Positions 34,121 through 57,140 of a stretch of DNA of 64,000 bases are shown here, in pieces. Below the pieces are notes generated by a model. The model was not told the origin of the DNA and searched no databases. It was given only the letters and a program-made list of their open reading frames with translations. The DNA lies in NCBI GenBank assembly GCA_943372645.1, contig CALRZN010000002.1, forward strand, positions 77,192 through 141,191, in the 5' to 3' direction. Position numbers and translations under genes: made by a program. This stretch comes from Chitinophaga pinensis. Its GTDB lineage: Bacteria; Bacteroidota; Bacteroidia; Palsa-965. How positions within the stretch are numbered: the first letter of the stretch is position 1; each line of letters starts with the position of its first letter.

Positions 34121-34123
34121 ATT

Positions 34124-40800: not shown

Positions 40801-40877
40801 TTCAAATATAACATATTATGTGTTCTTGCTTCGGAAAACCGGCTGTTTTCCGTATGTTTGGAGGAAATAATTGCATT

Positions 40878-41951
40878 ATGAAAAAACTTTTACTCGCTTC
40901 CTGCTGCCTCTTTTCAATGTACGCCCTCCAGGCACAAACCTTCAGTTCTCCTGAAAGTGTGGAATACGACGGCGTAAACAACCGCTGGATTGTAGGCCAG
41001 AACGGCTCCGGCATTATACACATTTACAGCCCTGCCTCTTCTTCGCTGGTTCAGCTGGGAAGCACCACGCTGCCAAGCGGACCGCACGGCCTCGAAGTGC
41101 TCGGCAACACGTTGTATGCCTGCGACGGCAATGCCATCAAGGGATTTGACCTCACCACCGGCGCCCAGGTGTTTAATGTAAACCTCGGCGCAACGTTTCT
41201 GAACGGACTTACTTCCGACGGCGGGCATTTTTTATTCACGACTGATTTCACTGCGAAAAAAATATACCGGGTAAATACAAATACCAGTTCGTATAACCTG
41301 ATGACCAACACCACCTACACACCCAACGGTATTTATTACGACGGCGCAAACAACCGCTGCGTATTTGTAAACTGGGGTTCAACGGCCCGTGTGCAGGCCA
41401 TGAGCCTGGCCGATTCTACGGTATCAACATTATACACCACAGCAACCAGTAACATTGACGGCATTACCCGCGACCTGCAGGGCAACTGGTACATCACCAC
41501 CTGGGGCGGCAATGCGCTGCGGATGTTTGATGCTACATTTTCAACCGCACCAACCAGTGTAATGACCGGACTTTCGAGCCCGGCCGATATTGACATTAAC
41601 GCGGCCGGCGATTCCATCGGTATTCCGAATTCGGGCAATGCGAACAACGTGGTTTTTTATGCTGTTCCTTCTTCGCTCGGTATTCCGCAGCATGTTGCTC
41701 CGCTGCAGGCCATGGATTGTTTTCCGAACCCGGCCGTTACCGAAGTACGTATCGTGCTCGAACAGGCGGTTGAAAACGCAATGCTTATTTTGTTTGATGC
41801 TTCCGGCAAAAAAGTGTCGGAACAGGCTGCAAATGGAAATCAGTTCACTGTTTCGCGCAACAACCTGGCCGACGGATTTTATTATGTGGCGCTTTACAAC
41901 AGCACACAGCAACTGATCGCCCTGCAAAAGGTAGCGCTCATGCCGCAGTAA
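40878..41951 (+). CDS. Secreted beta-propeller (NHL/SMP-30-like) protein with T9SS C-terminal domain
   Basis: Signal peptide MKKLLLASCCLFSMYALQAQ. Repeated propeller blades (…GNTLYACDG…, …GNWYITTWGG…). C-terminal CFPNPAVTEVRIVL…GFYYVAL CTD. Confidence 0.62.
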   Translation: MKKLLLASCCLFSMYALQAQTFSSPESVEYDGVNNRWIVGQNGSGIIHIYSPASSSLVQLGSTTLPSGPHGLEVLGNTLYACDGNAIKGFDLTTGAQVFNVNLGATFLNGLTSDGGHFLFTTDFTAKKIYRVNTNTSSYNLMTNTTYTPNGIYYDGANNRCVFVNWGSTARVQAMSLADSTVSTLYTTATSNIDGITRDLQGNWYITTWGGNALRMFDATFSTAPTSVMTGLSSPADIDINAAGDSIGIPNSGNANNVVFYAVPSSLGIPQHVAPLQAMDCFPNPAVTEVRIVLEQAVENAMLILFDASGKKVSEQAANGNQFTVSRNNLADGFYYVALYNSTQQLIALQKVALMPQ

Positions 41952-41972: not shown

Positions 41973-44045
41973 GTGGCGAAGAAAAAAAACCAAGCGCCGG
42001 ATGTCGTTCCCGGTAAAACCAGTTTCCTGACACAGCAGCGTTTCCCGTTGTTGCTGGTATTGCTTGTTTTTATTGTTTTCGGTAACTCCATCCGCAACAA
42101 CTATGCGATGGATGACGAGTACTTTACCAATGGCGGATCTTCGCCGCTCAACGATCACATCCGGCAAGGCTTCAGCGGTATTCCTGCCATTTTCAAATCG
42201 CGTACATTTTTCGGTGAAGACGGCGGAGGCTCATCATACCGCCCCGTTGCCGCAGCCACATTTGCCGTTGAATATGCACTGGCCGGAGAGCGTCCGCAGC
42301 TGAGTCATTTCATCAGCCTGCTGTTGTATGCCGTAATCGTGGTGCTGCTGTTTGCATTGCTGCGGCGCTGGTTTAAGGCGCAGGGCGACTGGTTTGCATT
42401 TTTTATTGCGTTGCTGTTCCTGGTGCATCCGTTGCATACAGAAGTGGTTGACAACATCAAGTGCCGCGACGAACTGCTTGCTTTGCTGGGCGGCATCGGC
42501 TGCCTCTATTTTGCGTGGCGGTTTTACGAAACCAAAAAAATCGTTTTCCTGGTGGTGTACCCGTTGTTTTTCTTTGCCGGGTTGCTTTCCAAATACACCA
42601 TCATTCCCTGGATCGCTGCGTTTCCGCTTGCATTTTATTTTTTCAGCGACCTGAAAATAAAACAGATCCTGCTGTACCTGCTGCCGGTGCTGGTGGCTGC
42701 ATTATTCACGGCGGCGATTCAGCAGCTGTGGCTGCCGCCGCAGGACCGTGTATTCCAGTTGCAGGAAAACCCGTTTTATACCGAACATATCGGATTGGGT
42801 TCGCGTATTGCAACGGCCAGCCTCATCAGTGGTAAATACCTGTTGCTGCAACTGTTTCCGCACCCGCTGCTGTTTTATTACGGCTACCGCAAAGTGGAAG
42901 TGGTTGGTTTTGACAACATCTTCGCGATTCTTTCGCTGCTCGTTTTTGGTGCGCTCGTATTTCTTGCGTTCAAAGGCTTCCGCAAAAAAACAATTTGGGC
43001 CTTTGCCATTTTGTTTTTCGGTTTACACATTGCGGCCTATTCAAACCTGCTGCGCCCTGCTCCGGGACTGATGGCGGAGCGGTACGCCCTTTCCGCTTCG
43101 CTGGGCTTTTGCATTGCGCTGGTGTGGCTGGTGTTTTACCTGCTGAAAAACAATCCTGAACGGTTTGCCTGGAACAGCAGCCGCGCCGGGTATATAATTA
43201 CAGGTGTGGCTTTGCTTTTCGGGATACGGACACTGGTGCGTAACGGCGACTGGTTCGATAAAATGACGTTGTATAACAACGATATTGAATACCTCGAAGA
43301 GTCGGCCAAAGCCAACCTGATGCTGGGCGGGCATCTTGCCGAAAGCTCCATCGCACTGAACCGGGAAGCACAGCAGCTGGAAGCGCAGGGCCTGCGCGCA
43401 GAGGCACAAATCCGTTACAACCGCGCCGACTCGATGCTGCGCGAAGGTGTAGCGCGGATGGAACGCGCCATCAGCATTGATTCCGGTTATACCAAAGCAT
43501 GGAATAACCTCGGCAGTTATTACTACATGCAGGCCGATTACAAACGCGCGATTCAAACGTATAAAAAAAGTATTCTGCGCGATTCGGCAAACCATGTGGC
43601 ATGGACCAACATGGGCCTGTGTTTTGTAAATCTGAAAAACGATTCGGTGGCTGAAAAATGTTTCCGTTCGGCCATAGAAGTTGATTCGGCCTACATGCCG
43701 GCATACCAGGGACTGGCGCAATTGCTTACCGCAAAAAAACAGGCACCGGAAGCGATCGCGCTGCTGCAGCGGGCCACGAAAATAAATCCGGCCGAAGCAA
43801 ACATTCCGCTGGAAGCACTTTCGCGCATTGCCCTCGCACAGGGCGATACGTCATCCGCTTCTTACCTTATGGCAGATGCAATGCTGATTAAACCCGGCAA
43901 CGTACAACTGATGCGCAACCTCGCAGGATATTTCAGCAGCAAAGGCGATCAGCAAAAAGCCGATGCAATGCTGCAGAAAGTAAAAGCCGTCGAAGAAAAA
44001 GAAAAACGCTCGTTTGCCGGACGCAAAGCAAAAAAGCGGCGGTAA
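41973..44045 (+). CDS. TMTC-like membrane glycosyltransferase (PMT_2/DUF1736 multi-TM domain) with C-terminal TPR repeats
   Basis: YRPVAAATFAVEYAL, HPLHTEVVDNIKCRDELLA and roughly 10 TM helices, as in TMTC/ArnT-like GT-C enzymes. The C-terminal 300 aa contain TPR units (AWNNLGSYYY…, AWTNMGLCF…). Confidence 0.68.
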   Translation: MAKKKNQAPDVVPGKTSFLTQQRFPLLLVLLVFIVFGNSIRNNYAMDDEYFTNGGSSPLNDHIRQGFSGIPAIFKSRTFFGEDGGGSSYRPVAAATFAVEYALAGERPQLSHFISLLLYAVIVVLLFALLRRWFKAQGDWFAFFIALLFLVHPLHTEVVDNIKCRDELLALLGGIGCLYFAWRFYETKKIVFLVVYPLFFFAGLLSKYTIIPWIAAFPLAFYFFSDLKIKQILLYLLPVLVAALFTAAIQQLWLPPQDRVFQLQENPFYTEHIGLGSRIATASLISGKYLLLQLFPHPLLFYYGYRKVEVVGFDNIFAILSLLVFGALVFLAFKGFRKKTIWAFAILFFGLHIAAYSNLLRPAPGLMAERYALSASLGFCIALVWLVFYLLKNNPERFAWNSSRAGYIITGVALLFGIRTLVRNGDWFDKMTLYNNDIEYLEESAKANLMLGGHLAESSIALNREAQQLEAQGLRAEAQIRYNRADSMLREGVARMERAISIDSGYTKAWNNLGSYYYMQADYKRAIQTYKKSILRDSANHVAWTNMGLCFVNLKNDSVAEKCFRSAIEVDSAYMPAYQGLAQLLTAKKQAPEAIALLQRATKINPAEANIPLEALSRIALAQGDTSSASYLMADAMLIKPGNVQLMRNLAGYFSSKGDQQKADAMLQKVKAVEEKEKRSFAGRKAKKRR

Positions 44046-44127
44046 CCTCTGCCGGAACGCACCTGGCGGCGCATTCTTTTTTAGCTTAACTTTGATATCC
44101 GATCATCCCTTTTTAAAAACCGATCCC

Positions 44128-45684
44128 ATGAAAACAAACCTTTTCCCCTTTGTTTGTGCTGCCTTGCTTGCTGCGGCACAACTACCTGCCCAAAACGACA
44201 CCTGGTATTTCGGTAACGGAGCCGGGCTGCATTTTAACGGTATAATCACCACACCGGCAGGCGGCTCACTGCTTAACACAAGCGAAGGCTGCGCAACGGT
44301 TGTTGATTTTAACGGCAATGTGGCCATGTACACGGACGGCGTGAATATCTGGAACGGCGCACATGTTTTGCAATCATCCTCCGCAGGTTCGCTTGGCGGT
44401 CACCCATCGTCCACACAGGCTGCACTTATCGTTCCGCTGCCTTCTCCGAACTGCGGCAAATATTTTATTTTCACCACACAGGCGGTGGAATCGGATTACG
44501 GAGTAACTGCCGGCCCGAACAACCTGGCCTCCAGTTCGGGGCTGCGTGTTTCGCTCGCAACAGTTACAGGAACAGCACCATCCACAACAGTTACCATATT
44601 GCCTGCTGACCGGGATGTCAATCTTACGCCCGGCATTCTTATGTCAGAACGGCTCACCGCAGTTGATGACGGCAGCAACGGCTGCTGGGTGATTGCGCAC
44701 GGAGCCGGAACGTATTCGAATCCGAACACGACCTCGCCTATAAACATCGCGGGAGAAAAAAGTTTTTACACCGTTCACATTACGAACGCTACACCAACAG
44801 TGGCGTCTTTATCTGTTAACTCCACCTCTTTTACGCCATCACCGCATGTTTCTTATTCACATCCGTATCCGGGAAATTCGAATGCATACTTTACCCAGGG
44901 ACAACTGAAAGCAACCATGGGCGGAACGCGTCTCGGAGTTGCTATGAGTTATGGCTTCGAGGTGCAGCTGTATGACTTTAATCCTTCTTCCGGGGCCGTT
45001 TCAAACCAGGTATTGCTGAACGGAACAAACTTTGCTTTTGACCCGTTCAGCGAAGCCACAGTTTACGGACTTGAGTTTTCACCAAACGGAAACCTGCTGT
45101 ATGTAACAACTACGTTTGGCGGGATGTACGATTATATTTACCAGTTCGACCTTACGGCAAGCAATGTGGCGGCTTCGCGCGTAGCCATTGATTCGATTCC
45201 GGGTAATTATGCGTTCGGACAGATGCAGCTCGCCCGTAACGGCAAGATTTACATTGCGAAACAGCCCACACTTTCAACAGGATCGCTTGATGTGATTAAT
45301 AATCCGAATGCCCAGGGCCTTGGATGCAACCATGCTTCTGCAGCGGTTCCTATAGGTGGTTTTTCCCGCCTTGGTTTACCAACGGTTGTGTTTTACAGCC
45401 CCTGTGATAAGTTCAGTTCCATCGGTAACGAATACAGCGACAATGCAAACAATGCCATGCAGCTGATTCCGGCCGGCAACGACGTTACGCATGTGGTGCT
45501 GTCCGATCGGCCCGACGGGGGAAAAATAAACGTGTTCAACAGCATCGGGCAGCTCGTGCTGGGCGTGCGCTGCGAAGGCACCACTACCGCACTGCAAACC
45601 GGCGTGCTGCCTCCGGGTGTTTATATTGTTTCGTATGAAAACGGGATGAAACGCCTGAGCAAACGACTTGTGATCAGCCGGTAA
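44128..45684 (+). CDS. Secreted T9SS cargo protein, YVTN-like beta-propeller
   Basis: Signal peptide MKTNLFPFVCAALLAAAQLPAQ. N-terminal WYFGNGAGLHFNG…TSEGCATVVDFNGN. C-terminal VFNSIGQLVLG…GVYIVSYENG is a Por CTD. Paralog of 46916..48970. Confidence 0.68.
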   Translation: MKTNLFPFVCAALLAAAQLPAQNDTWYFGNGAGLHFNGIITTPAGGSLLNTSEGCATVVDFNGNVAMYTDGVNIWNGAHVLQSSSAGSLGGHPSSTQAALIVPLPSPNCGKYFIFTTQAVESDYGVTAGPNNLASSSGLRVSLATVTGTAPSTTVTILPADRDVNLTPGILMSERLTAVDDGSNGCWVIAHGAGTYSNPNTTSPINIAGEKSFYTVHITNATPTVASLSVNSTSFTPSPHVSYSHPYPGNSNAYFTQGQLKATMGGTRLGVAMSYGFEVQLYDFNPSSGAVSNQVLLNGTNFAFDPFSEATVYGLEFSPNGNLLYVTTTFGGMYDYIYQFDLTASNVAASRVAIDSIPGNYAFGQMQLARNGKIYIAKQPTLSTGSLDVINNPNAQGLGCNHASAAVPIGGFSRLGLPTVVFYSPCDKFSSIGNEYSDNANNAMQLIPAGNDVTHVVLSDRPDGGKINVFNSIGQLVLGVRCEGTTTALQTGVLPPGVYIVSYENGMKRLSKRLVISR

Positions 45685-46915: not shown

Positions 46916-48970
46916 ATGAAAAAAAAGCTGATTACACTCTTCTCGCTGCTGGCCTTGGGCACAGGTCTTCTCCATGCACAAACCGGGGTCTGGTATTTCG
47001 GAAACGGTGGCGGATTACAGTTTACAAACACTGGCACTAATCCGATTGCAGGTTCGCCGATCAATACCAGTGAAGGTTGCGCAGGCGTTGTAGATGCGCT
47101 GAACAATGTAGAGTTTTATACAGACGGTGCGAATATCTGGAACGGAAACCATGTTAACCAGTCGGGAACGGCAGGCACACTTGCCGGTACGATATCTTCA
47201 TCGCAAACTGCGCTGATTATTCCTGTTCCGGATCAGACCTGTAACAACTTTTTCATTTTCACCACGCAATCGGTTGAGAATAACTATGGTGTTGCCGGTG
47301 TAAGTGACGGGCTGCGGGTTTCCCTGGCCACTGTTACCGGAACAGCACCAAGCACTACAGTTACAATTACTACTGCAAACCGGAACCAGCTGATCAATAC
47401 CGGGGGCGCCCTGATGTCGGAACGCCTTACCGCAGTGAGTGATGGTAACGGCGGTTATTGGGTACTTGCGCACGGGTGCGGAACCTATGGCGCGGCTTCA
47501 TTCGGTACACCATTGAATACACTTGGCGAAGGCAATTTTTACCGCGTACACGTAACAAACACTACAACAACAATTGGATCGCTCACGGCAACAGCCATCA
47601 ATTTCCCGGCCAGCACTCACCGATCCTGCATCCATCCGTATTTAACAACGAACGGATCAAGCAATATTTTTTATACACAGGGACAGATGAAGCTGAGTGC
47701 TGACGGTCGCCGTCTTGCAGTTGCAATGGGTATGCTGCGCGAGGTTCAGTTATATGACTTCAACCAGTCAACGGGTGCCATCACCAACCAGGTATTAATT
47801 ACCAATTTTGCCGGGACGGAAGCAACGGTTTACGGCGTGGAGTTTTCTCCAAATGGCGATATGCTTTATGTAGCAACAACATACGCCGGCTCTACGAAAA
47901 ACGTTTACCAGTTCGATCTTCTTACAAATGTTCGCACAACACTTGCCACATCTACTACGAACTATAATTTCGGTCACCTGCAGCTCGGCCCCGATCAGCG
48001 TATTTACGTTGCACGTCAGCCGAATAATACAACCACCGTTCTTGACGTTATCCAGAGTCCGAATACGTCTGGTACGGGCTGTACTTATGTTTCGGGAGGA
48101 GTAACCATTGCAGGTCAGTGCCGCCTTGGCCTTCCTACGGTGCTTGTAAACAACCCCTGCGAAGGAAACGGAGGCCCGACAGGGTGTGTGTGCAATTCAT
48201 CAGCAACCATTACCGGCTCAACTCTGCTTAAAGACGGAACAGGAACAGCAACCCTCGCGCTCAACAGCGGAACAATGCTCGTCCGCCGTTTAAAAATTAC
48301 GCTCGTAAACTTTACGCAGTCCGTAACTCCTGAATGCCTGAAATGTGAAATGAATGCCGCTTCGCAATTCGGTACAATCACTAACACCCCGGTTGTAAAC
48401 ACGGTTACCGGCGTGCTTGCTCCTGCCACCACCAATGGTGTTGCATCGTGGTCGAAACAGATTTCGTGGACACTCACAACGCCTGCTGTTGTAAACGGAA
48501 GCGTTACGCTCAACCTCCGTTTCCCGGGCGTGTTAAACCTGAGCTGTTGCGCAAACAAAGTAGATTACTGCTTCAACGTGGAATACATTGATGCCGACTG
48601 CAATATTTGTGAAAACACCACCTGCACCAGCACCGGATCGCCGCAGGCGCTTAAGCTGAACGACGAACAACCGGCAAACGAAATGGTAATTCCTTCGGCT
48701 CCTGCTGTTAAACCGGAAACCGGCAACAAAAACGACATCATGCAGCTGTTCCCGAATCCGACCGGCGGCAACGTAACCGTTGAACTGGCTGCTTCTGATC
48801 TCGGCGGAAAAATCCAGGTGTTCAACAGCAACGGAACCATGGTGCAGAGCCAGCGCTGCGAAGGACCGGTAACTGTTATCAGCACCGGCAACCTGCCGAA
48901 CGGCCTGTACATGATTACGTATGAAAGCAACGGCACGCGCGTAAGCCAGCAGTTGCTTGTGCAGCACTAA
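46916..48970 (+). CDS. Secreted T9SS cargo protein (paralog of 44128..45684) with extra Cys-rich module
   Basis: VWYFGNGGGLQFTN…TSEGCAGVVDALNN…IWNGNHV parallels the upstream paralog. C-terminal LFPNPTGGNVTVEL…GLYMITYESNG is a Por CTD. Confidence 0.68.
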   Translation: MKKKLITLFSLLALGTGLLHAQTGVWYFGNGGGLQFTNTGTNPIAGSPINTSEGCAGVVDALNNVEFYTDGANIWNGNHVNQSGTAGTLAGTISSSQTALIIPVPDQTCNNFFIFTTQSVENNYGVAGVSDGLRVSLATVTGTAPSTTVTITTANRNQLINTGGALMSERLTAVSDGNGGYWVLAHGCGTYGAASFGTPLNTLGEGNFYRVHVTNTTTTIGSLTATAINFPASTHRSCIHPYLTTNGSSNIFYTQGQMKLSADGRRLAVAMGMLREVQLYDFNQSTGAITNQVLITNFAGTEATVYGVEFSPNGDMLYVATTYAGSTKNVYQFDLLTNVRTTLATSTTNYNFGHLQLGPDQRIYVARQPNNTTTVLDVIQSPNTSGTGCTYVSGGVTIAGQCRLGLPTVLVNNPCEGNGGPTGCVCNSSATITGSTLLKDGTGTATLALNSGTMLVRRLKITLVNFTQSVTPECLKCEMNAASQFGTITNTPVVNTVTGVLAPATTNGVASWSKQISWTLTTPAVVNGSVTLNLRFPGVLNLSCCANKVDYCFNVEYIDADCNICENTTCTSTGSPQALKLNDEQPANEMVIPSAPAVKPETGNKNDIMQLFPNPTGGNVTVELAASDLGGKIQVFNSNGTMVQSQRCEGPVTVISTGNLPNGLYMITYESNGTRVSQQLLVQH

Positions 48971-49051: not shown

Positions 49052-50635
49052 TTATTGTTTTTTTACTTCGAGTATTGCGGCAACATATCCTTTATCATTC
49101 AGCGGTTTTTCAATGCGCACGTTGCCGTTTGCATCCGTACTGAATTTTGCCTGCGCCGATAATTTCCCGGCAAGTGCCTTGTTTATTTTTTCGCCCAGCG
49201 AACTGCCCGTCGCCGAACTGATCTTTGCGTTCAGCGCGTTGTAATCAATCGGTTCATGCGTAATGATTACTGCCATCTGGTCGGTGGTGCCCGCATCGTC
49301 GGGATAAAGCGTGTGGTCTTTCGGAAACAGGCGTGTGCCGGTTACACCACAATACGGCGAGTGTTTTTTTGTGTACGGAAAAAGCACATACGTCGTGTTG
49401 TTGTTTTCAAGTCCAACGAGGTACGTGTAACATTCCGTGTTATTCGTAAACTCAATTTTAAACGGCGTTCCTGCTTTTCCTTTTTTTACCGCGTTGCGGT
49501 TTGTAAACACATTGCCGTTTTTCTGTCCGAAGGGAATGTTCGCTTTCGTGTTTTGGTTCTGTAAACCGAACGACGCGGTAAATGTTGTCGGAGCTGCTTT
49601 GCCCGCTTCGCCCATCGGGTGCAGGCCCATGGCCTCTACCACAAAAAAATCAAAGTCTTTGTAACGCACCCATGCCGTGCCGTTATCGCCCCACTCCGGC
49701 CCCCACGAATTCATCAGTTGAAATGCACCGCCTTCTAAATAGTCGTCGTATCCGATTACACACATCGCGTGTCCGCCGAAACCGCTCATGTCGTAATCAC
49801 GGCTTTCGGGTATCCACACTTTTTTGCCATCCATGCTGCGCATAAACGAGCCGCCCACCTGCATACCGATCACCACCGGCGCACCGGCCGCGAGGTTTTG
49901 TTTGATGGCAAGCATATTCACTTTGTAATCTTCGCCATCCAATGAAAGCCGCGTAAATCCTTTAATGCGGTAAGCGGATGCTTCACGGAGCAGGCTGCCG
50001 TCCGGATCTTTGCTGCACGAATTTTCGTTGTACGGAAACTTGTCAAAATCCACATCGCCTTTTTGTTCCAGCGATTCCATGGCGCGGATGAGGTACGAGC
50101 CCTGGCAATCTTCCAGCGCAATCTGGTTGTACAAAAACGACGGACTGAACGCAACCTCATCCGGATTTTTCCCGCTTTCGCGTGCGTACATAATGCTGCG
50201 CGCAGCATACGAGCTGGCCCACGCCACACACGAACCCTGCTGGCCCTGGTTGAGGCGTTTGGGTGCGTACTGCAAAAGCGATACACGTTCGGGCATCGGG
50301 TTTTTAATATTATCCGCAAGCGGTTCATACACCATCGCCTGGTCGTATAAATCCTGGTTCATAGAACAGCCGCGGCTGTAGGCAGATGATGCGGGCTGAT
50401 TGCCACCGAAGCCGATGCGGTCGCGGAAAAACCAGAGCCCGATGAGCACCAGCACAACCACCGCCCCCAGTTTGGGATTGCGGAACAAAAACCGGATGAT
50501 CTGCGGCAGAAACATCAACAGCATCATCAGCAGTCCGCCACCGCCTCCACCACCGCCGCCTGTAAATCGCGGGCGGTTGCCGTTGCTGTTGTCGGGAGAA
50601 TAATTTTCGTTATCGCGGTCAATTCGGATCGGCAT
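49052..50635 (-). CDS. Membrane-anchored papain-like (C1 family) cysteine peptidase with C-terminal extra domain
   Basis: QGQQGSCVAWASSYA (Gln oxyanion and Cys nucleophile), GGHAMCVIGYDD (His), NSWGPEWGDNG (Asn-Ser-Trp). N-terminal cytoplasmic tail with GGGGGGGGG followed by one TM helix. Confidence 0.78.
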   Translation of the reverse strand: MPIRIDRDNENYSPDNSNGNRPRFTGGGGGGGGGLLMMLLMFLPQIIRFLFRNPKLGAVVVLVLIGLWFFRDRIGFGGNQPASSAYSRGCSMNQDLYDQAMVYEPLADNIKNPMPERVSLLQYAPKRLNQGQQGSCVAWASSYAARSIMYARESGKNPDEVAFSPSFLYNQIALEDCQGSYLIRAMESLEQKGDVDFDKFPYNENSCSKDPDGSLLREASAYRIKGFTRLSLDGEDYKVNMLAIKQNLAAGAPVVIGMQVGGSFMRSMDGKKVWIPESRDYDMSGFGGHAMCVIGYDDYLEGGAFQLMNSWGPEWGDNGTAWVRYKDFDFFVVEAMGLHPMGEAGKAAPTTFTASFGLQNQNTKANIPFGQKNGNVFTNRNAVKKGKAGTPFKIEFTNNTECYTYLVGLENNNTTYVLFPYTKKHSPYCGVTGTRLFPKDHTLYPDDAGTTDQMAVIITHEPIDYNALNAKISSATGSSLGEKINKALAGKLSAQAKFSTDANGNVRIEKPLNDKGYVAAILEVKKQ

Positions 50636-50795
50636 AGTGTGTTTTTATTATTTGCCGAAAGATAATTTATTCGGGGCGAAAAAGGGTGCGCAGGATGAGA
50701 AATGTCATCCTGACAATGGTTTTATTGCCATACGTAACTGACAATAATTTCATTGTCAACGCATGTAAAAAACTCCCCGTATCTTGTAACCACCA

Positions 50796-51806
50796 ATGCA
50801 AACCACGCCACTCCCGAAAACAGTCCTCGTAACAGGCGCCACCGGCTTCCTCGGCTTCCGCCTGGCCGAATTGCTGCTGGAAAAAGGTGTGCGTGTAATT
50901 GCAACCGGCCGCACATTAAAACCGGAGCTGACATTAACCCATTCAGACATCGCGTACAAACTCGGTTCACTCGAAAACGAAATTTTTGTGCAGTCGCTTT
51001 TCGCAGATGAAAAACCGGATGCCATTGTGCATTGCGCTTCGCTGTCGTCGCCCTGGGGCAAAAAAGAATGGTTTCACGCATCCAATGTGCTTTCGCAGCA
51101 GTACCTCATTCGTGCAGCGCAGCAGCACGGCATAAAGCGGTACGTTTATATTTCCTCGCCAAGTATTTATTTTGATTTCAGCGACCGGTTTGATGTAAAC
51201 GAAGAAACGCCGCTGCCCGCAAAATTTGTAAACGACTATGCGCGCACCAAGTTTGAGGCGGAACAATTGCTGCACAAAACCGATCTCGATTATGTCATCC
51301 TGCGTCCGCGTGCCATGATCGGGCGCGGCGACATTGTGATTATGCCGCGCCTCATCCGCGCTTACGAAGAAGGCCGTCTGCGCATCATCGGCAGCGGAAC
51401 CAATGTGGCCGACCTTACGCCGGTGGCCAATGTTGCTGATGCCATAACCTGCGCGCTGGTGGCAGAAAACAATGCATTAAAACAGGCGTACAACATCACC
51501 AACGGAACCCCGGTGAAACTGTGGGATTCCATTTCCGATATGCTCACCACGCTCGGCCTTGAACCGCCGGCAAAAAAAATAAGCGCAGGAACGGCGTATA
51601 AAATTGCCGGTACGATGGAATGGTTCTATCGTAATTTTATGCCGGGAAAAGAACCTGCGCTTACCCGTTACAGTGTGGGCACGCTGGCCGCTTCATTTAC
51701 GATGGATATCCGCAAGGCAAAAGAAAAACTGCGTTACGGCCCGCGCATGAGCGTAGCAGAAGGCATGCAGGAGTTTGCCGACTGGTATAAAAACAAAAAC
51801 GCATGA
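50796..51806 (+). CDS. NAD-dependent epimerase/dehydratase (extended SDR, 3beta-HSD-like)
   Basis: VLVTGATGFLGFRLAELL (Rossmann GxxGxxG) and YARTK (YxxxK). First gene of a translationally coupled operon (overlaps the next gene by 4 nt). Confidence 0.85.
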   Translation: MQTTPLPKTVLVTGATGFLGFRLAELLLEKGVRVIATGRTLKPELTLTHSDIAYKLGSLENEIFVQSLFADEKPDAIVHCASLSSPWGKKEWFHASNVLSQQYLIRAAQQHGIKRYVYISSPSIYFDFSDRFDVNEETPLPAKFVNDYARTKFEAEQLLHKTDLDYVILRPRAMIGRGDIVIMPRLIRAYEEGRLRIIGSGTNVADLTPVANVADAITCALVAENNALKQAYNITNGTPVKLWDSISDMLTTLGLEPPAKKISAGTAYKIAGTMEWFYRNFMPGKEPALTRYSVGTLAASFTMDIRKAKEKLRYGPRMSVAEGMQEFADWYKNKNA

Positions 51807-52651
51807 GTACCGTAAAGTTCCGTTACTGCAGTGCCGGGTACTGCAACGCGCCCGAGTTCCTTGCCATTAAAGGCGGGCGTTTTAAAGAAATCCGTTTTTA
51901 CGCCACCTTCGGCATCATCAAACACCCGACTGAGGGCGTTATTCTTTTTGATACCGGGTACTCGCATCGTTTTTTTGATGCCACGAAAAAATACCCGGAA
52001 CGCCTGTATGCAAAAATTACAAAGGTGTTTCTTGAAAAACAGGAAGAAGCCGTGGAGCAGCTGAAAGCACTCGGCATTGCAGCAGGTGATGTGAAAAAAA
52101 TTATCCTCTCGCATTTTCATGCCGATCACACGGCCGGCCTGCGCGATTTTCCGGAAGCCGTAATTTATTGCTCCGAAGTGGCTGCCGCAAAAGCCTTGCC
52201 GCTGCGCGGATTCGGTGCGGTAAGCAAAGGCGTACTGCCGCAGCTGCACCCCGATGATATCCAAACGCGTTTACGCATCATTGGCAAAGATGCCGGCGTG
52301 GTGCATATTGATTCCCTTTGGGGCGAGGTTGTTGATCTTTTCGGAGATGGTTCCATTAAACTCGTACACGTTCCCGGCCATGCCGCGGGCATGATCGGAG
52401 CGCTGCTGCGTACACACAAAGGAACCGTTTTCCTGATCGCGGATGCCGCCTGGGTGCGCAAATCGTGGCAGGAGTTTGTAATGCCCAACCGCCTGGCCGG
52501 ACTCATTTTCGATTCGTGGCGCGATTTTAAAACATCGCTGCGCAAAGTGCATGAATATGCCATGGCCAATCCCGAAACGGTAATCATTGCTACCCACTGC
52601 CGCGAAACGATGGACGCTGTTTTTAAATCACAGGAAGAAGATGCGTTTTAA
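51803..52651 (+). CDS. MBL-fold metallo-hydrolase (lactonase-like)
   Basis: SHFHADHTAG (HxHxDH zinc motif) and downstream His/Asp ligands (VHVPGHAAGM). 282 aa. Confidence 0.8.
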   Translation: MSTVKFRYCSAGYCNAPEFLAIKGGRFKEIRFYATFGIIKHPTEGVILFDTGYSHRFFDATKKYPERLYAKITKVFLEKQEEAVEQLKALGIAAGDVKKIILSHFHADHTAGLRDFPEAVIYCSEVAAAKALPLRGFGAVSKGVLPQLHPDDIQTRLRIIGKDAGVVHIDSLWGEVVDLFGDGSIKLVHVPGHAAGMIGALLRTHKGTVFLIADAAWVRKSWQEFVMPNRLAGLIFDSWRDFKTSLRKVHEYAMANPETVIIATHCRETMDAVFKSQEEDAF

Positions 52652-53945
52652 ACTGCGGATACTCGTTTATTTTTTACGGTTCCGTTTGTTCACCCCGCGC
52701 ACGCGCGAAGCCGTTATGCACGTGCAGCAGCGGCGGCTGAAAAAACTGACGCGCGTTTTAATCCGCTCCCCGTTTTACCGGGAACTTGCAGCAACCGGTG
52801 CGCCGCTTACGACTTACCCGCTGATGAACAAGGCCGCGATGATGGAATCCTTCAGCCGCATCAATACCGTGGGCATCACCACTGAAGACGCGTTTGCCAT
52901 TGCCATACGCGCAGAAACTTCGCGCGATTTTGCACCCGACTGGCACGGCATTTCCATCGGGCTTTCGTCAGGCACTTCGGGCAACCGCGGTATTTTTCTT
53001 GCTTCGGAAAAAGAACGGGCGTTGTGGGTGGCGGCTGTGCTGCACCGCGTAATCGGTTTTTCGCTGCGCAAACGGCGCGTTGCATTTTTTCTGCGTGCAA
53101 ATAACAACCTGTACGAATCGGTAAATTCATCGCTGCTGCAGTTCCGGTTTTATGATATTCTTTTCCCGGTTAATGATCACCTAGTAAAGCTGCAGGAACA
53201 ACAGCCGCACATTCTTGTGGCGCAGCCGTCGGTGCTGCTGCTGCTGGCGAAAGCAGTGGAGGAAAAACAATTGCACATCGCGCCTGCAAAAATTATTTCC
53301 GTGGCCGAAGTGCTTGAACCGGTTGACCGCCGTTACCTCGAACGGGTGTTCAAACAAACCATTCACCAGGTGTACCAGGCCACGGAAGGTTTTCTTGCAA
53401 CGACCTGTAAAAACGGAACGCTGCATTTTAACGAAGACACTTTGCTGATTGAGAAAAAATATGTGGACGATGCGCAGACGCGTTTTTACCCGGTAATTAC
53501 CGATCTGTTCCGCGAAAGCCAGCCCGTGGTGCGTTATGAACTGAACGACCTTATTATTGAAAAACAAAACTGTTCCTGCGGGTCGCCGTTCCTGGCTATT
53601 GAAGCCATCGAAGGCCGTTCGGATGATGTATTCCGGTTTACCGACCGCAACGGAAAAGAAGCAATCATATTCCCTGACTTCATCCGCCGCGCGGTAATGC
53701 TGGCATCTGAACACATCAGCGCGTATGAAGTGGTGCAGAGCGGGTTAACAGAAATTTCCATTTTTCTGAAAATCAGCGATGGGGAGTTATCCACCGTTTC
53801 CGGGCAAACCATAAACAACATTGTATCTTTATTGCAGCATTACCAGGTAGAAAACGTACGTGTAATTTTCAGGGATGTTTTCCCGGAAGAAGAGCACGGA
53901 AAAAAAAGGAGGCGTGTACGCAATGCAAGTCAGAAACCCGTTTAA
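52641..53945 (+). CDS. F390-synthetase-related / PaaK-like adenylate-forming enzyme
   Basis: LSSGTSGNRGIF (AMP-binding P-loop S-S-G-T-T/S-G-x-x-G) and YQATEG…. About 435 aa, the small stand-alone adenylating-enzyme size. Start at the internal Met overlapping the MBL stop by 11 nt. Confidence 0.68.
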   Translation: MRFKLRILVYFLRFRLFTPRTREAVMHVQQRRLKKLTRVLIRSPFYRELAATGAPLTTYPLMNKAAMMESFSRINTVGITTEDAFAIAIRAETSRDFAPDWHGISIGLSSGTSGNRGIFLASEKERALWVAAVLHRVIGFSLRKRRVAFFLRANNNLYESVNSSLLQFRFYDILFPVNDHLVKLQEQQPHILVAQPSVLLLLAKAVEEKQLHIAPAKIISVAEVLEPVDRRYLERVFKQTIHQVYQATEGFLATTCKNGTLHFNEDTLLIEKKYVDDAQTRFYPVITDLFRESQPVVRYELNDLIIEKQNCSCGSPFLAIEAIEGRSDDVFRFTDRNGKEAIIFPDFIRRAVMLASEHISAYEVVQSGLTEISIFLKISDGELSTVSGQTINNIVSLLQHYQVENVRVIFRDVFPEEEHGKKRRRVRNASQKPV

Positions 53946-54921
53946 GTTCACCGGTGCCGGCAAAGCACTGCCCGCGAACTGTGTTACATCCGATGTACTC
54001 GAAAAACAACTTGGTATACCGCCCGGCTGGTCGCAACGCTACTCCGGCGTAAAATCGCGCTACCACGTAACCACCGAAACCGGCGCAGGCATGGGCGCGG
54101 CTGCCGTGCGCGAAGCGCTTGAGATGGCGGGTATAACACTCGCCGATATTGACCTGTTACTTTGCGGGGCAGCTTCATTTGATTATCCGCTACCCAACCA
54201 GGCTTCAGCAATAAAAAAAGAACTCGATCCGGATTTTAAGTTTACGTTTCCTGCTGTTGATATTGACAGCACCTGCCTGAGTTTTGTAACAGCTGTTGAT
54301 TTTGCGTCTTCCCTGCTCGACGGGAAACGGTTCCGCCGCATCGTGGTGGTCAGCACCGAAATTGCATCCAAAGGATTAAATCCCGATCAATGGGAAACGG
54401 CCACGCTGTTCGGCGACGGCGCTGCGGCAGTGGTGATGGAATATGATCCGGAAAAAAAAGCGGGACTTATTCACGCACACATGAAAACGTGGTCCGATGG
54501 TTTTGATCACACCATGATACGCGGCGGCGGCAATTCGTTTTATTTTAAAGAACATCCGTACAACCGCGAACTGCATTCGTTTTACATGAACGGCAAAATG
54601 CTGTTGCGCCTTGCCAAAGAACGGATCCCGGATTTTATGAATGATTTTTTCCGCGAACTGCCGGTTGATGTAACCGGGGTTGATTACATCATTCCGCACC
54701 AGGCCAGCCGCACCGGTGTTGAAATATTCCGCAAGATGTACAACTTCCGCGACGACCAGATTCTCGGCAACCTGGAAACACACGGCAACTGCATTTCGGC
54801 CTCCATCCCGATGACGTTTTATGATTTTGTAAAAAACGGAACACTGCGTCCGGGTATGACCTGCCTGCTTTCCGGCACATCGGCGGGATTTGCTATTGGA
54901 GGAGTTTTAGTGCGGCTTTAA
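53923..54921 (+). CDS. Beta-ketoacyl-ACP synthase III-like (FabH/KAS III family) condensing enzyme
   Basis: DIDSTCLSF (active-site Cys), IPHQASR (His) and HGNCISASIP (Asn/His region). About 333 aa. Overlaps the upstream gene by 23 nt. Confidence 0.82.
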   Translation: MQVRNPFKFTGAGKALPANCVTSDVLEKQLGIPPGWSQRYSGVKSRYHVTTETGAGMGAAAVREALEMAGITLADIDLLLCGAASFDYPLPNQASAIKKELDPDFKFTFPAVDIDSTCLSFVTAVDFASSLLDGKRFRRIVVVSTEIASKGLNPDQWETATLFGDGAAAVVMEYDPEKKAGLIHAHMKTWSDGFDHTMIRGGGNSFYFKEHPYNRELHSFYMNGKMLLRLAKERIPDFMNDFFRELPVDVTGVDYIIPHQASRTGVEIFRKMYNFRDDQILGNLETHGNCISASIPMTFYDFVKNGTLRPGMTCLLSGTSAGFAIGGVLVRL

Positions 54922-54960
54922 AAAAGAATTTCTTTTGCAGCAGTCGGTAACATTGCGTTC

Positions 54961-55081
54961 GTTTTTTGTTTTTGAATAATGAATGTATAAAACCTGTTCT
55001 CGACTGCCGCTCGAACTGACGGTAATATTAATTTCCCGAGTACCGCTCGAACTGACGGTTGTTTTTTGTTCCTGAATTATG
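54961..55081 (+). promoter_or_regulatory. Direct-repeat-containing leader upstream of the sulfotransferase gene
   Basis: 17-mer ccgctcgaactgacggt at 55007-55023 and 55043-55059 (36-bp spacing). ttttttgtt…tgaat(a/t)atg occurs twice (54962-54985 and 55061-55081), the second including the real ATG. Confidence 0.45.
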
Positions 55082-56236
55082 TACTTCAACATCACACTGC
55101 TGTTCCGCCTGCTTCCGAAAACATTTTCGGCAAGCCGTAAAAGTTTGCGTTATCCTTCGGGCAAACGCATCGGCCGGCTGCTGCTTTTGTTTCCGCTGTT
55201 TACCGTGTTGTTTATGGTGAACAGTGTTTTTCTTTTACTCGATTATGTTTTTTTTCCGCACTTCCTGTGGGTGAAAATTCCGAAAAGCGTTTTCATTGTT
55301 GGTGTACCGCGCACCGCCACCACGTTTCTGCTCGAAAGCCTTTCTTCCGACCGGGAACAGTTTACCTGCTTCCGCCTGTGGGAGCTCGTGTTTGCGCCGT
55401 CGGTTATCCAGAAATATTTTTTCCGCGGGCTGCTGTTTGTTGATCGTTATACTGGCAAACCGTTCCGCCGCCTGGCCGGTTTATTTGACAAATGGATTTT
55501 CGGAAACTTCCGCGCCATACATAATATGGGCCTGGGCAAGCCGGAAGAAGACGAAGCGCTGCTGCTCTGGTGTTTTTCATCGGCCTACCTCGCGTATTTT
55601 TTCCCGGAAACAGTTGCGGCGGACGAATTGCTTTTTTTTGATGCCTCGCTTCCGCTGAACAAACGGAAACGCATCATGCGTTTTTATTACCGTTGTGTGC
55701 AGCGCCACCATCTGGTATTTAACCGGCGCAATGAAAAATATTTTCTGTCGAAAAACCCGGCTTTTGTATGCAAGATGGAAACCGTTCCGTTTTTTTTCCC
55801 GGAAGCAAAAATACTGTACACGCTGCGCACGCCGTTCCGCACCATTCCCGCAACCATCAGCCTGAATGCAAACATTTACAGCGCATTTTCACATCTGCCG
55901 GAAAAATACCCGCTGCAGCACGAAACAAAAAACGCGGTGATCCGCTGGTACAAAATGGCCGATGCCGCACTGCGTAAAATGCCGGAAAACAACTACCGCA
56001 TTGTTCCGTTCGGGCGCATTTCAAAACAGCCGGAAAACGAACTGGAGACGATTTATCAGTTTCTGCATGTGCCGGTGAATGCCTTGCGCAAAGCGGCTTT
56101 CCAAAGCATCCAGCAAAAAGCAGATTCTTATAAAAGCGGGCACTCGTACGATACCGCCTCCGGAATTGATGAACACGAGATACGAACCGAACTTGATTTT
56201 GTAATCAATGGTCCGTATAAAAACGAAATCGGCTGA
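55079..56236 (+). CDS. Membrane-anchored sulfotransferase family protein
   Basis: N-terminal TM segment LLLLFPLFTVLFMVNSVFLLL. VGVPRTATTFL (5'-PSB-like PAPS-binding P-loop) and YTLRTPFRTI (3'-PB-like R-x-P). Stop and next start share TGATG. Confidence 0.6.
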   Translation: MYFNITLLFRLLPKTFSASRKSLRYPSGKRIGRLLLLFPLFTVLFMVNSVFLLLDYVFFPHFLWVKIPKSVFIVGVPRTATTFLLESLSSDREQFTCFRLWELVFAPSVIQKYFFRGLLFVDRYTGKPFRRLAGLFDKWIFGNFRAIHNMGLGKPEEDEALLLWCFSSAYLAYFFPETVAADELLFFDASLPLNKRKRIMRFYYRCVQRHHLVFNRRNEKYFLSKNPAFVCKMETVPFFFPEAKILYTLRTPFRTIPATISLNANIYSAFSHLPEKYPLQHETKNAVIRWYKMADAALRKMPENNYRIVPFGRISKQPENELETIYQFLHVPVNALRKAAFQSIQQKADSYKSGHSYDTASGIDEHEIRTELDFVINGPYKNEIG

Positions 56237-57090
56237 TGGAACCGCTGCACGAACAATTCGTGGAAATAAACGGCGCGCGTATCAATTACGTGCGCTGCGG
56301 AACAGGTTCGCCACTCGTGTTCCTGCACAACGGCGGCGGTTTCTGGCAATCGTGGGAAAAACAGATCCGGTACTTTTCACAAACACACGATTGCATTGCA
56401 TTCGACTGGCCGGGGTTCGGAAAATCCACACCGCACGGAGAAATAGCGATTACACTTGATTTTTATACACGGAGTTTACAGGAAGTGCTTGAACAACTCG
56501 GTATTTCAAACGCTTCGCTCATCGGCAACTGCATCGGCGCTTCGGTAGCCATTCAGTATAAACAACTGCATCCGCAGCGCGTGAACAAACTGATAGTGCA
56601 AAACATCTGCCCGGGCCGGCGTATTTTTCCGAATGCATTTGCCGCAAAAATCTTCCGCGGTATTTCCAAAAAGAAATTGCTGCGGCGCACAGGCATAAAC
56701 GTATTCGCATTCCTGCTGCCACGCCCGCCCATGAAAAACAAATCGCCGCGCATCCTGTTTGGTAAAACCTACAACGCGTCCGATCCGCTCGTGCAAATGT
56801 ATAACACGACTTTTGCCCGCCCCTTCATCACACGCAGCCGCGCCGCAATGTTGTTCGATGTAGATACATTTACGCTCGCTGATTTTCTGCAGCCTGCATT
56901 TGATACCGGTAACGTAACGCTGCTGTGGGGCAAAGAAAACAACGTTGCTGCTTTTGAAAAAGAAGGTCGATACCACCAGCAACTGCTCGGTCTGGAAAGC
57001 ATTCAGCCCGTTGAAGGCGGAGGCCACCTGTGCATGTACGAATGCCCGGACGCTGTGAACGAAACGATTGCAGCAGCCCTGCGCAAATAA
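56236..57090 (+). CDS. Alpha/beta-fold hydrolase with Cys nucleophile (G-N-C-I-G)
   Basis: VFLHNGGGFWQSW (oxyanion HGGG-like), LIGNCIGASVA (nucleophile elbow GxCxG rather than GxSxG), HLCMYE near the C-terminus (His). Confidence 0.8.
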   Translation: MEPLHEQFVEINGARINYVRCGTGSPLVFLHNGGGFWQSWEKQIRYFSQTHDCIAFDWPGFGKSTPHGEIAITLDFYTRSLQEVLEQLGISNASLIGNCIGASVAIQYKQLHPQRVNKLIVQNICPGRRIFPNAFAAKIFRGISKKKLLRRTGINVFAFLLPRPPMKNKSPRILFGKTYNASDPLVQMYNTTFARPFITRSRAAMLFDVDTFTLADFLQPAFDTGNVTLLWGKENNVAAFEKEGRYHQQLLGLESIQPVEGGGHLCMYECPDAVNETIAAALRK

Positions 57091-57140
57091 AAAACGACGA
57101 CCGTTTCCGATCGTCGTTTGCTGTTTATTCTTTTTTGAAA

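Follow-up and report, generated by a model that had tools for sequence, protein, structure and literature searches.

A conserved four-gene cassette with an optional sulfotransferase-hydrolase module as a candidate pathway for sulfated lipids

Positions 50796 to 57090 of a 64,000-nucleotide stretch assigned to Chitinophaga pinensis (GCA_943372645.1, contig CALRZN010000002.1, positions 77,192 to 141,191 of the forward strand; hereafter the window) hold six genes on the plus strand, here called G1 to G6, which form a real operon. G1 (50796-51806) encodes an extended short-chain dehydrogenase/reductase (SDR), G2 (51803-52651) a metallo-hydrolase of the metallo-beta-lactamase (MBL) fold, G3 (52641-53945) an adenylate-forming enzyme of the TIGR02304 family, and G4 (53923-54921) a condensing enzyme with the fold of beta-ketoacyl-ACP synthase III (KAS III; ACP, acyl carrier protein). 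They are followed by G5 (55079-56236), a predicted membrane-anchored sulfotransferase of the type that uses 3'-phosphoadenosine 5'-phosphosulfate (PAPS), and G6 (56236-57090), an alpha/beta hydrolase. We propose, tentatively and with somewhat less than even confidence, that the first four genes are a conserved cassette that builds a hydroxylated, fatty-acid-derived lipid scaffold, and that the last two are a module that sulfates it at the membrane.

Results

The core genes co-occur and are accompanied by exchangeable modules

One genome per species was scanned, yielding 556 genomes with a close relative of G3, of which the best 80 loci were analysed. Raw open reading frames (ORFs) were grouped into accessory families by BLAST clustering, and the G3 tree was a quick neighbour-joining tree. 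G1, G2, G3 and G4 lie in the same order and at near-constant spacing in 73-75 of the 80 loci, with about 50% protein identity, and most of the loci that depart from the core order are on contigs that end early. This co-occurrence is far beyond chance. An initial annotation made from the sequence had made its reading depend on such a co-occurrence of the gene families, and the neighbourhood is indeed conserved across dozens of genomes.

Downstream gene content was counted in the 57 loci with at least 4.5 kb 3' of G4. A sulfotransferase follows G4 in 22 of them, and both the sulfotransferase and the hydrolase are present in 14; G6 thus accompanies the sulfotransferase in 14 of 22 loci and is absent from the other 8. 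None of the 80 loci has G6 next to the core without a sulfotransferase. The single six-gene biosynthetic unit of the initial annotation therefore stands as an operon but not as an indivisible set: it consists of a conserved four-gene core and an optional two-gene putative sulfation module.

Other genes also occur beside the core. A DesA-like acyl-lipid desaturase lies between G4 and G5 in seven of the 57 loci, and an OlsE-like fatty-acid hydroxylase, a Rieske oxygenase together with a DUF3419 (BtaA-like) protein, and an ATP-grasp enzyme with an unknown partner were found as well. Sulfotransferase modules occur in 33 loci, DUF3419 modules in 15 and ATP-grasp modules in 9; they are mutually exclusive in all loci analysed and are interleaved across the G3 tree. 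Exclusivity combined with interleaving is the pattern expected of alternative polar groups added to one scaffold. No exporter or receptor gene is conserved beside the core in the 80 loci. The idea that distant homologs of G5 and G6 always accompany the cassette was rejected on account of two loci described below, L095 (a G5 relative of 33% identity) and L096 (a G6 relative of 30% identity).

G5 is predicted to be a membrane-anchored sulfotransferase

G5 matches the Sulfotransfer_3 family (PF13469) with 65.6 bits against a gathering cutoff of 27. An AlphaFold model computed from 44 homologs has a predicted local distance difference test (pLDDT) score of 93; the models of G5 and G6 were used for fold matching alone and not for active-site geometry. 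The top 50 Foldseek matches of G5 are all sulfotransferases, the best being Stf9 (2z6v) and Stf1 (2zq5), with E 3e-10 and template modelling (TM) scores of 0.62-0.72. The sulfotransferase domains of CurM and of the cyanobacterial olefin synthase (OLS) follow at ranks 6-7 (E 3e-5, TM 0.33-0.49).

Four residues are invariant in the 44 sequences: R78 and T81 of the 5'-phosphosulfate loop (PRTATT), which aligns with the corresponding loop of Stf1, R250 of the 3'-phosphate motif, and H148. Eight residues after R250 the consensus has a Ser, where G5 of the window has Ala and then Thr. A strongly hydrophobic helix (residues 30-61, Kyte-Doolittle value 2.41) is predicted to span the membrane. The assignment of G5 as a membrane-anchored PAPS-type sulfotransferase, of the mycobacterial Stf type as judged from motifs and predicted fold, holds: the PAPS-binding motifs were found with R78, T81 and R250 invariant, and the Pfam score and the fold agree with them, as the initial annotation had supposed.

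The automatic annotation of one source labels some G5 homologs with the function of Stf3, an enzyme that sulfates a lipid alcohol in a PAPS-dependent manner to give the sulfated menaquinone S881. In addition, the 33%-identical G5 relative in L095 (GCA_029261835.1) adjoins an MBL-fold alkylsulfatase, a setting that agrees with an aliphatic alcohol being the acceptor of the G5 clade. The L095 cluster also holds a TetR regulator, an amine-oxidase-type flavin adenine dinucleotide enzyme, a ferredoxin, a sulfatase and a second Sulfotransfer_3 gene, and has the look of a locus of its own in which sulfate is added and removed.

An insertion separates G4 from G5

G4 and G5 are separated by a 157-bp intergenic insertion with tandem and inverted repeats (54922-55078, plus strand). 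The direct repeats that had been noticed upstream of the sulfotransferase are present: a 36-nt tandem pair at 54997-55068 shares the exact 17-nt core CCGCTCGAACTGACGGT, found nowhere else in the window (0.01 expected by chance), and a 26-nt repeat ends at the G5 start codon. The gap is missing from a relative whose G3 is 90% identical (L084, junction at about 3017), where the G4 stop and the G5 start overlap as TAATG. Another relative (L094) has an insertion at 7685-7843 that forms a 27-bp hairpin of -67 kcal/mol (z -8.3), and the window copy folds at -36.5 kcal/mol (z -2.2). In two independent short-read assemblies of near-identical strains, contigs end inside the gap insertion. The gap looks like a lineage-specific palindromic insertion, decayed in the window, within an otherwise TAATG junction. 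The element may belong to a small mobile palindromic family or may act as an intra-operon regulatory hairpin.

G6 combines a dehalogenase-type fold with an invariant cysteine

G6 matches Abhydrolase_1 with 70 bits through a sequence that carries the motif GNCIG; Abhydrolase_6 was also matched, and Thioesterase (PF00975) was not. Its nearest solved sequences are epoxide hydrolases and haloalkane dehalogenases, and its model (pLDDT 95) has haloalkane and fluoroacetate dehalogenases and epoxide hydrolases as top Foldseek matches, with TM scores of 0.70-0.79. Across 40 sequences, with identities as low as 27%, C99, H264 and N235 do not vary. When aligned with the epoxide hydrolase 9c2g, C99 and N235 fall on the aspartates of its DY and GD motifs, which from the enzyme class we take to be its nucleophile and acid. 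Alignments and predicted structure agree in describing G6 as a dehalogenase/epoxide-hydrolase fold in which the Cys and Asn of a putative Cys-His-Asn set replace two Asp; we know of no precedent for this catalytic set on a dehalogenase scaffold.

The Cys-nucleophile alpha/beta hydrolase with a GxCxG motif described in the initial annotation is recognisable in GNCIG and the invariant C99, but the kinship with polyhydroxyalkanoate (PHA) synthases is not. A PHA-synthase-like or thioesterase-like G6 was rejected because sequence and fold both point to dehalogenases and epoxide hydrolases. The G6 relative of 30% identity lies in a variant cassette (L096 2140-8840, GCA_963851725.1) composed of an SDR, an MBL-fold protein, a 162-aa ORF, a c17-like protein, a KAS III, an ATP-grasp-like protein and the G6-like hydrolase. 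This variant has neither a TIGR02304 gene nor a sulfotransferase, and its ATP-grasp enzyme may stand in for the adenylating enzyme.

G3 and G4 resemble PaaK-type ligases and chain-fusing KAS III enzymes

Residues 4-428 of the 434 of G3 align with the TIGR02304 model (F390 synthetase-related) at 474.2 bits, well above the cutoff of 251.9. The nearest solved structure is the PaaK-type ligase 4r1l of B. thetaiotaomicron (E 2e-12), and the ANL motifs SSGTSGN, YQxTEG, RYxLxD and GRxDD, together with the C-terminal Lys, are invariant in 14 sequences. By these matches G3 is a clear TIGR02304 member and a PaaK-like adenylate-forming enzyme, in line with the F390-synthetase-like enzyme first suggested.

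G4 scores 68 bits against ACP_syn_III and 73 bits against ACP_syn_III_C. Over its full length it matches MxnB (4v2p, 208 bits, E 2e-60) and CorB (4yuc, 203 bits), compared with 132 bits for its best FabH match and 79-83 bits for PqsD. Solved OleA chains (3row, 3s21, 4ku5 and others) match residues 57-148 alone, with 33-38 bits. The triad C118, H259 and N289 is conserved in 76 sequences. Sequence comparison places G4 among KAS III-fold enzymes, closest to the chain-fusing MxnB and CorB; of the FabH-like KAS III originally proposed, the family is retained, but the nearer relatives are the pyrone synthases (208 versus 132 bits). MxnB and CorB fuse two long carrier-bound polyketide chains head to head with formation of an alpha-pyrone, and these chains come from large assembly lines in myxopyronin and corallopyronin biosynthesis (PMC5724707, PMC5506619).

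G1 and G2 fall near 3-oxo-acid reductases and lactonases

The Pfam scores of G1 are 118 bits for Epimerase and 84 bits for 3Beta_HSD. Its best curated models are two models of OleD, the 2-alkyl-3-oxoalkanoate reductase, both matched over the full length at 187-188 bits (E 2e-55), followed by HpnA at 108 bits. Residues S120, Y148 and K152 are conserved in 75 orthologs. G1 is probably an NAD(P)H-dependent reductase of the 3-beta-hydroxysteroid dehydrogenase/OleD type that converts a 3-oxo into a 3-hydroxy group. The SDR part of the earlier reductase/epimerase label is kept and the epimerase part corrected, G1 most resembling the 3-oxo-acid reductase OleD.

G2 matches Lactamase_B with 55.7 bits and carries the motif HFHADH. 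Its nearest curated and solved relatives are the lactonases AttM, AiiA and AiiB and 4-pyridoxolactonase, and its seven metal ligands (H104, H106, D108, H109, H193, D214 and H265) are conserved. W217 is invariant, at a position where the best-matching solved N-acyl-homoserine lactone lactonase (9khq) has a Tyr within a DAAY motif. These comparisons assign G2 to the MBL-fold metallo-hydrolases, in the lactonase clade. Taken over the whole operon, each of the six enzyme-family calls of the initial annotation passes profile searches.

The cassette extends beyond Bacteroidota

Distant cassettes were found by tblastn of plasmid records. Pontibacillus, Bacillus mycoides, Ketogulonicigenium, Paracoccus and E. 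coli have four adjacent full-length homologs of 31-47% identity, in the order KAS III-SDR-MBL-G3. The cassette is therefore not confined to Bacteroidota, the scope foreseen for the neighbourhood survey in the initial annotation, but occurs also in Bacillota, Rhodobacterales and E. coli; the G3 family itself comprises 498 clusters at 50% identity (E <= 1e-30). The cassettes of Pontibacillus and Bacillus mycoides contain an embedded ATP-grasp gene. Those of Ketogulonicigenium and Paracoccus, which are on plasmids and have different flanks, lie beside a divergent TetR gene and another Sulfotransfer_3 gene. This Rhodobacterales sulfotransferase was rejected as a G5 ortholog (BLASTP E 0.79), though both belong to Sulfotransfer_3.

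In E. coli the cassette is part of a seven-gene island (L088/L089) encoding KAS III, SDR, MBL, TIGR02304, PAP2_3, FA_hydroxylase and FA_desaturase proteins. The island lies between narI and the tyrT tRNA genes; 674 of 5426 complete genomes have it, O25b:H4-ST131 and uropathogenic isolates among them. The standard lipid pathways of E. coli are not known to include oxygen-dependent desaturase or hydroxylase genes. A PAP2_3 domain is also found in a metagenomic protein of 642 aa (P0321), where it occupies residues 59-191 and is fused to a TIGR02304-type enzyme (213-636); this fusion links the adenylating enzyme to membrane phospho-lipid chemistry.

The megaplasmid of Pseudomonas sp. Leaf58 (L091 6076-8424) carries an MBL and TIGR02304 pair followed by a 75-aa hydrophobic ORF. 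A G1-like SDR gene lies 5 kb upstream of the pair, and the locus has no KAS III gene. This bare pair marks MBL-G3 as the tightest association of the cassette, and the pair may have a function of its own. The genomic surroundings suggest that the cassette sits in variable regions.

In two further genomes, of Fluviicola and a metagenome-assembled member of the Parvicellaceae (L081 15820-21284 and L082 14387-17785), the cassette adjoins defence-type genes, for AIPR, DUF4420 and Z1 proteins and for SMODS, QueC and NUDIX proteins. A reading of the operon itself as a defence system was rejected, the PADLOC models giving no match among the six proteins.

Operon boundaries and flanking genes

The junctions from G1 to G6 are overlaps of 4, 11 and 23 nt, the 157-nt gap, and an overlap of 1 nt; the same-strand arrangement and the overlap lengths given in the initial annotation match the ORF coordinates exactly. 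G3 and G4 start at internal ATG codons (52641 and 53923), in agreement with ortholog N-termini (consensus MxFKLxIL) and the gene calls of relatives. Upstream, an intergenic region of 160 bp (50636-50795, taken on the plus strand) is the presumed operon promoter and is shared with a divergent C1-peptidase gene on the minus strand (49052-50635, called as an ORF), which forms the upstream border. No convincing sigma-70-type site was found in 50636-50795 by a scan that does not cover the promoter types of Bacteroidota. Neither the leader nor the gap contains a riboswitch or other RNA known to Rfam, the sole match being a chance-level small RNA inside G3. At the downstream end, a hairpin terminator at 57092-57119 (12-bp stem, 6 GC pairs), to which no strand is assigned, also serves a convergent tetratricopeptide repeat (TPR) gene. 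The scan placed it on the minus strand, and the plus strand shows a T-rich stretch after the stem.

The flanks in the window encode proteins secreted by the type IX secretion system (T9SS), an S1/P1 nuclease, the C1 peptidase, TPR and PstS-like proteins, and ExbBD. A functional tie between the operon and these neighbours was rejected, since the flanks are unrelated and other genomes have different ones. Three window proteins have T9SS C-terminal sorting domains (38686-41948 and 46916-48967), one of them with an SMP-30/gluconolactonase-like region, and two large ORFs (44014-45681 and 33338-34717) have no family match. A threonine-synthase-like enzyme dependent on pyridoxal phosphate (PLP) is encoded at 37568-38671 on the plus strand and scores just below several ThrC cutoffs (284.5 versus 301 and 160.1 versus 167.1). 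The cysteate synthases of sulfonolipid (capnine) pathways are ThrC-like, and this ORF could be a cysteate synthase; it is separate from the operon, 12 kb away. The T9SS sorting domains and the taxa of its relatives put the source organism in Bacteroidota, and its close relatives are known solely from metagenome assemblies.

Discussion

A proposed route to a sulfated lipid

In the proposed route, G3 would adenylate a fatty-acid-type carboxylate, and the acyl group would pass to coenzyme A (CoA), to a host acyl carrier protein (ACP), or directly to the condensing enzyme. A Claisen condensation on G4 would then create a C-C bond and yield a 3-oxo intermediate, probably with a 2-alkyl branch, and G1 would reduce the 3-oxo group to a 3-hydroxyl. 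This sequence of condensation and reduction is supported by G4 being closest to MxnB and CorB and G1 being closest to OleD. G2 could release the product by opening a thioester or a lactone. G5 would move sulfate from PAPS to the lipid hydroxyl and so produce an anionic sulfate-ester lipid, and G6 may act in the same branch of the pathway through a thioester acyl-enzyme, by acyl transfer or ester cleavage. Elsewhere a DUF3419/BtaA-like, ATP-grasp or PAP2_3 enzyme appears to add a different polar group to this scaffold instead of sulfate.

A lipid product is suggested by the recurrent membrane desaturases and hydroxylases, by the PAP2_3 fusion, by the predicted membrane anchor of G5, and by the likeness of G5 to the Stf sulfotransferases. 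The accessory lipid enzymes and the anchor are thereby consistent with the lipid-like molecule made by a single biosynthetic unit that the initial annotation had envisaged. The link between sulfotransferase and cassette is supported by the 22 of 57 loci and by the unrelated Sulfotransfer_3 genes beside the two Rhodobacterales plasmid cassettes. The conserved catalytic residues of all six proteins speak for competent enzymes.

Several observations weigh against this route, in which substrates, step order and product are all deduced from family resemblance. At its start, the TIGR02304 family of G3 includes enzymes that form products other than CoA thioesters (F390 synthetase and ester- or amide-forming ligases), and the assembly line, a polyketide synthase (PKS), that feeds MxnB and CorB is absent here. 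G1 scores 188 bits, far below the OleD equivalog cutoff of 580. G2 is nearer to lactonases than to known MBL thioesterases, and its solved-structure matches at E <= 1e-3 do not include PqsE. The sulfation step would need PAPS, and no PAPS-synthesis genes were found in the window. As to G6, its fold class displaces leaving groups from sp3 carbon and suits elimination or displacement better than acyl transfer, and its 30%-identical relative sits in a cassette variant without a sulfotransferase.

Alternative explanations

The fold of G6 gives most weight to an alternative in which sulfation is an activating step. Here G5 would sulfate the 3-hydroxyl made by G1, and G6 would remove the sulfate and decarboxylate the chain to give an alkene, so that the two would be a stand-alone counterpart of the sulfotransferase and thioesterase that offload the chain in CurM and OLS. 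The expulsion of leaving groups from sp3 carbon by the G6 fold class, to which the beta-lactone decarboxylase OleB also belongs, is the main point in its favour. It is joined by the coupling of G5 and G6 through a 1-nt overlap, by the occurrence of G6 solely with G5 among close orthologs, by the upstream gene for a 3-hydroxyl-forming reductase, and by the significant structural matches of the CurM and OLS domains to G5 (E 3e-5). However, G5 is much nearer to Stf1 and Stf9 (TM 0.62-0.72) than to those domains (TM 0.33-0.49), G6 is not a thioesterase of the PF00975 type, no ACP is encoded, and a Cys nucleophile in a bimolecular substitution mechanism would lead to a dead-end thioether. The two main objections come from the neighbourhoods: 8 of the 22 sulfotransferase loci have no G6, and a hydrocarbon product would not account for BtaA-like and ATP-grasp modules taking turns with the sulfotransferase. 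We consider this alternative unlikely, although it ranks narrowly first among three rivals that deserve serious attention.

Next comes an Ole-like route built from non-orthologous parts, which we regard as improbable. G4 would act as OleA in a head-to-head condensation, G1 as OleD, and G3 as OleC, turning the 3-hydroxy acid into a beta-lactone by way of an acyl-adenylate, and this lactone would be processed by G2. Such a route would end in a beta-lactone lipid or an internal olefin, and sulfation would be a side branch. The best curated match of G1 is indeed OleD, over the full length and with E 2e-55, and the nearest relatives of G4 join two long chains, yet solved OleA structures align with just part of G4, at about 37 bits. 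G3, a short enzyme of the PaaK type, has no OleC-type model among its curated matches. It does form with G2 the tightest pair of the cassette, adjacent in every version and found bare on the Pseudomonas megaplasmid, and this pairing recalls the OleB-OleC fusions that exist. G2 belongs to the lactonase clade, but an MBL enzyme that decarboxylates beta-lactones is not known. Moreover, sulfate, homoserine-type or phospho head groups would find no acceptor on an olefin unless it were rehydroxylated, and the operon has no hydroxylase.

The lactonase and pyrone synthase relationships can also be read as pointing to a small, diffusible product, a signal or an antibiotic, instead of a membrane lipid. 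By analogy with MxnB, CorB and the photopyrone synthases, G4 would make an alpha-pyrone or related lactone, which G2 would open or adjust, and sulfation would alter its solubility or activity. The full-length alignment of G4 with the pyrone-forming MxnB and CorB, which have the same Cys-His-Asn triad, is compatible with this, as are the quorum-quenching lactonases nearest to G2, the patchy distribution of the cassette on plasmids and in variable regions, and the TetR regulator of the two Rhodobacterales versions. The accessory genes, on the other hand, encode membrane-bound enzymes that act on long acyl chains, G5 is predicted to be membrane-anchored, PAP2_3 is fused to the adenylating enzyme, and no exporter or receptor gene is conserved by the core, so we give a signal or antibiotic a low probability and place it third among the alternatives. 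Finally, a catabolic operon, in which an aromatic compound or lactone would be degraded by a PaaK-like CoA ligase together with a lactonase, a dehydrogenase and a thiolase-like enzyme and G5 and G6 would serve detoxification, would suit the phenylacetate-CoA ligases nearest to G3 among solved structures and the resemblance of G2 to lactonases of gamma-butyrolactone and pyridoxine catabolism, but is very improbable given a KAS III whose Cys-His-Asn triad is that of a condensing enzyme and not of a degradative thiolase, accessory genes that modify lipids, and no conserved transporter, ring-cleavage or beta-oxidation genes nearby.

Wider implications

Returning to the lipid scaffold, a broader claim can be made with distinctly lower confidence. 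The cassette could represent an unrecognised class of lipids, neither glycerol-based nor sphingoid, with head groups swapped between lineages: sulfate, homoserine-type (DUF3419), amino-acyl (ATP-grasp) or phospho (PAP2_3). Such a class, which is possible but doubtful, would reach across Bacteroidota, Bacillota and Proteobacteria and take in about 12% of complete E. coli genomes, with ST131 and other uropathogenic strains among them, and G6 would be the first dehalogenase-fold alpha/beta hydrolase with a working Cys-His-Asn triad.

If the lipid reading is true, the operon gives access to an unstudied family whose members would be membrane lipids or lipid-like metabolites, and its core cassette is recognisable in hundreds of species. 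Bacterial sulfated lipids are rare and biologically potent, the mycobacterial sulfolipids being the known example. With the cassette present in E. coli, genetic work on it could begin immediately, and it may matter for interaction with the host. The swappable head-group modules would provide a testable evolutionary model, and G6 an unusual Cys-His-Asn set on a dehalogenase scaffold.

Comparison with known systems

The enzyme families, and small lipid or metabolite operons of this kind, are known; their combination here, its wide distribution and its swappable modules appear undescribed. No description of the cassette was found in open-access full text, and one may exist in subscription journals. 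Mentions of "F390 synthetase" in the literature are gene-list entries or concern methanogens and not the cassette, and the curated model libraries and RefSeq give generic family names alone for the cassette proteins.

The OleABCD pathway for long-chain olefins or beta-lactones is similar in joining, within one small operon, a condensing enzyme of the thiolase fold, a reductase of the 3-beta-HSD type, an adenylate-forming enzyme and, as in the six-gene form seen here, a dehalogenase-fold hydrolase. However, only G1 is detectably Ole-like, and below the cutoff; G4 resembles MxnB and CorB and not OleA, and G3 is of the TIGR02304/PaaK type and not of the OleC type. OleB shares its fold class with G6 but is always present and has an Asp nucleophile, whereas G6 has an invariant Cys and its gene is absent from most cassettes. 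The MBL hydrolase and the sulfotransferase of the operon have no counterpart in the Ole pathway. MxnB and CorB, which align with G4 over the full length and have the Cys-His-Asn triad in common with it, differ in their setting: the operon has neither PKS nor ACP (a motif scan found no ACP-like ORF near the core in the 80 loci or in the window), and the neighbours of G4 are an SDR, an MBL hydrolase and an adenylating enzyme.

In CurM and OLS, as in the operon, a PAPS sulfotransferase adjoins an alpha/beta hydrolase downstream of a step that forms a 3-hydroxyl. These enzymes are domains of PKS modules that act on an ACP-bound chain, with a thioesterase of the PF00975 type and a Ser nucleophile, whereas G6 is a separate protein with a dehalogenase-type Cys and is missing from a third of the sulfotransferase loci. 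Stf1 and Stf9 are the best structural matches to G5, with which they have the 5'-phosphosulfate loop and a long N-terminal extension in common; identity is 14-17% only, the N-terminal helix of G5 is strongly hydrophobic, and the genomic partners are entirely different. The Pqs alkylquinolone system also combines a carboxylate ligase (PqsA), KAS III-like enzymes (PqsD and PqsBC) and an MBL hydrolase (the thioesterase PqsE) without a dedicated carrier, but G2 groups with lactonases, G3 is not PqsA-like, and Pqs has neither an SDR nor a sulfotransferase.

The view of the initial annotation that the operon matches no described pathway, such as that of capnine, agrees with these comparisons. The capnine and sulfonolipid pathways use a PLP-dependent cysteate synthase and a cysteate-acyl condensing enzyme, and none of the six proteins is a PLP enzyme. 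The two chemistries differ also in their products, capnine being a sulfonate, whereas the operon would give a sulfate ester.

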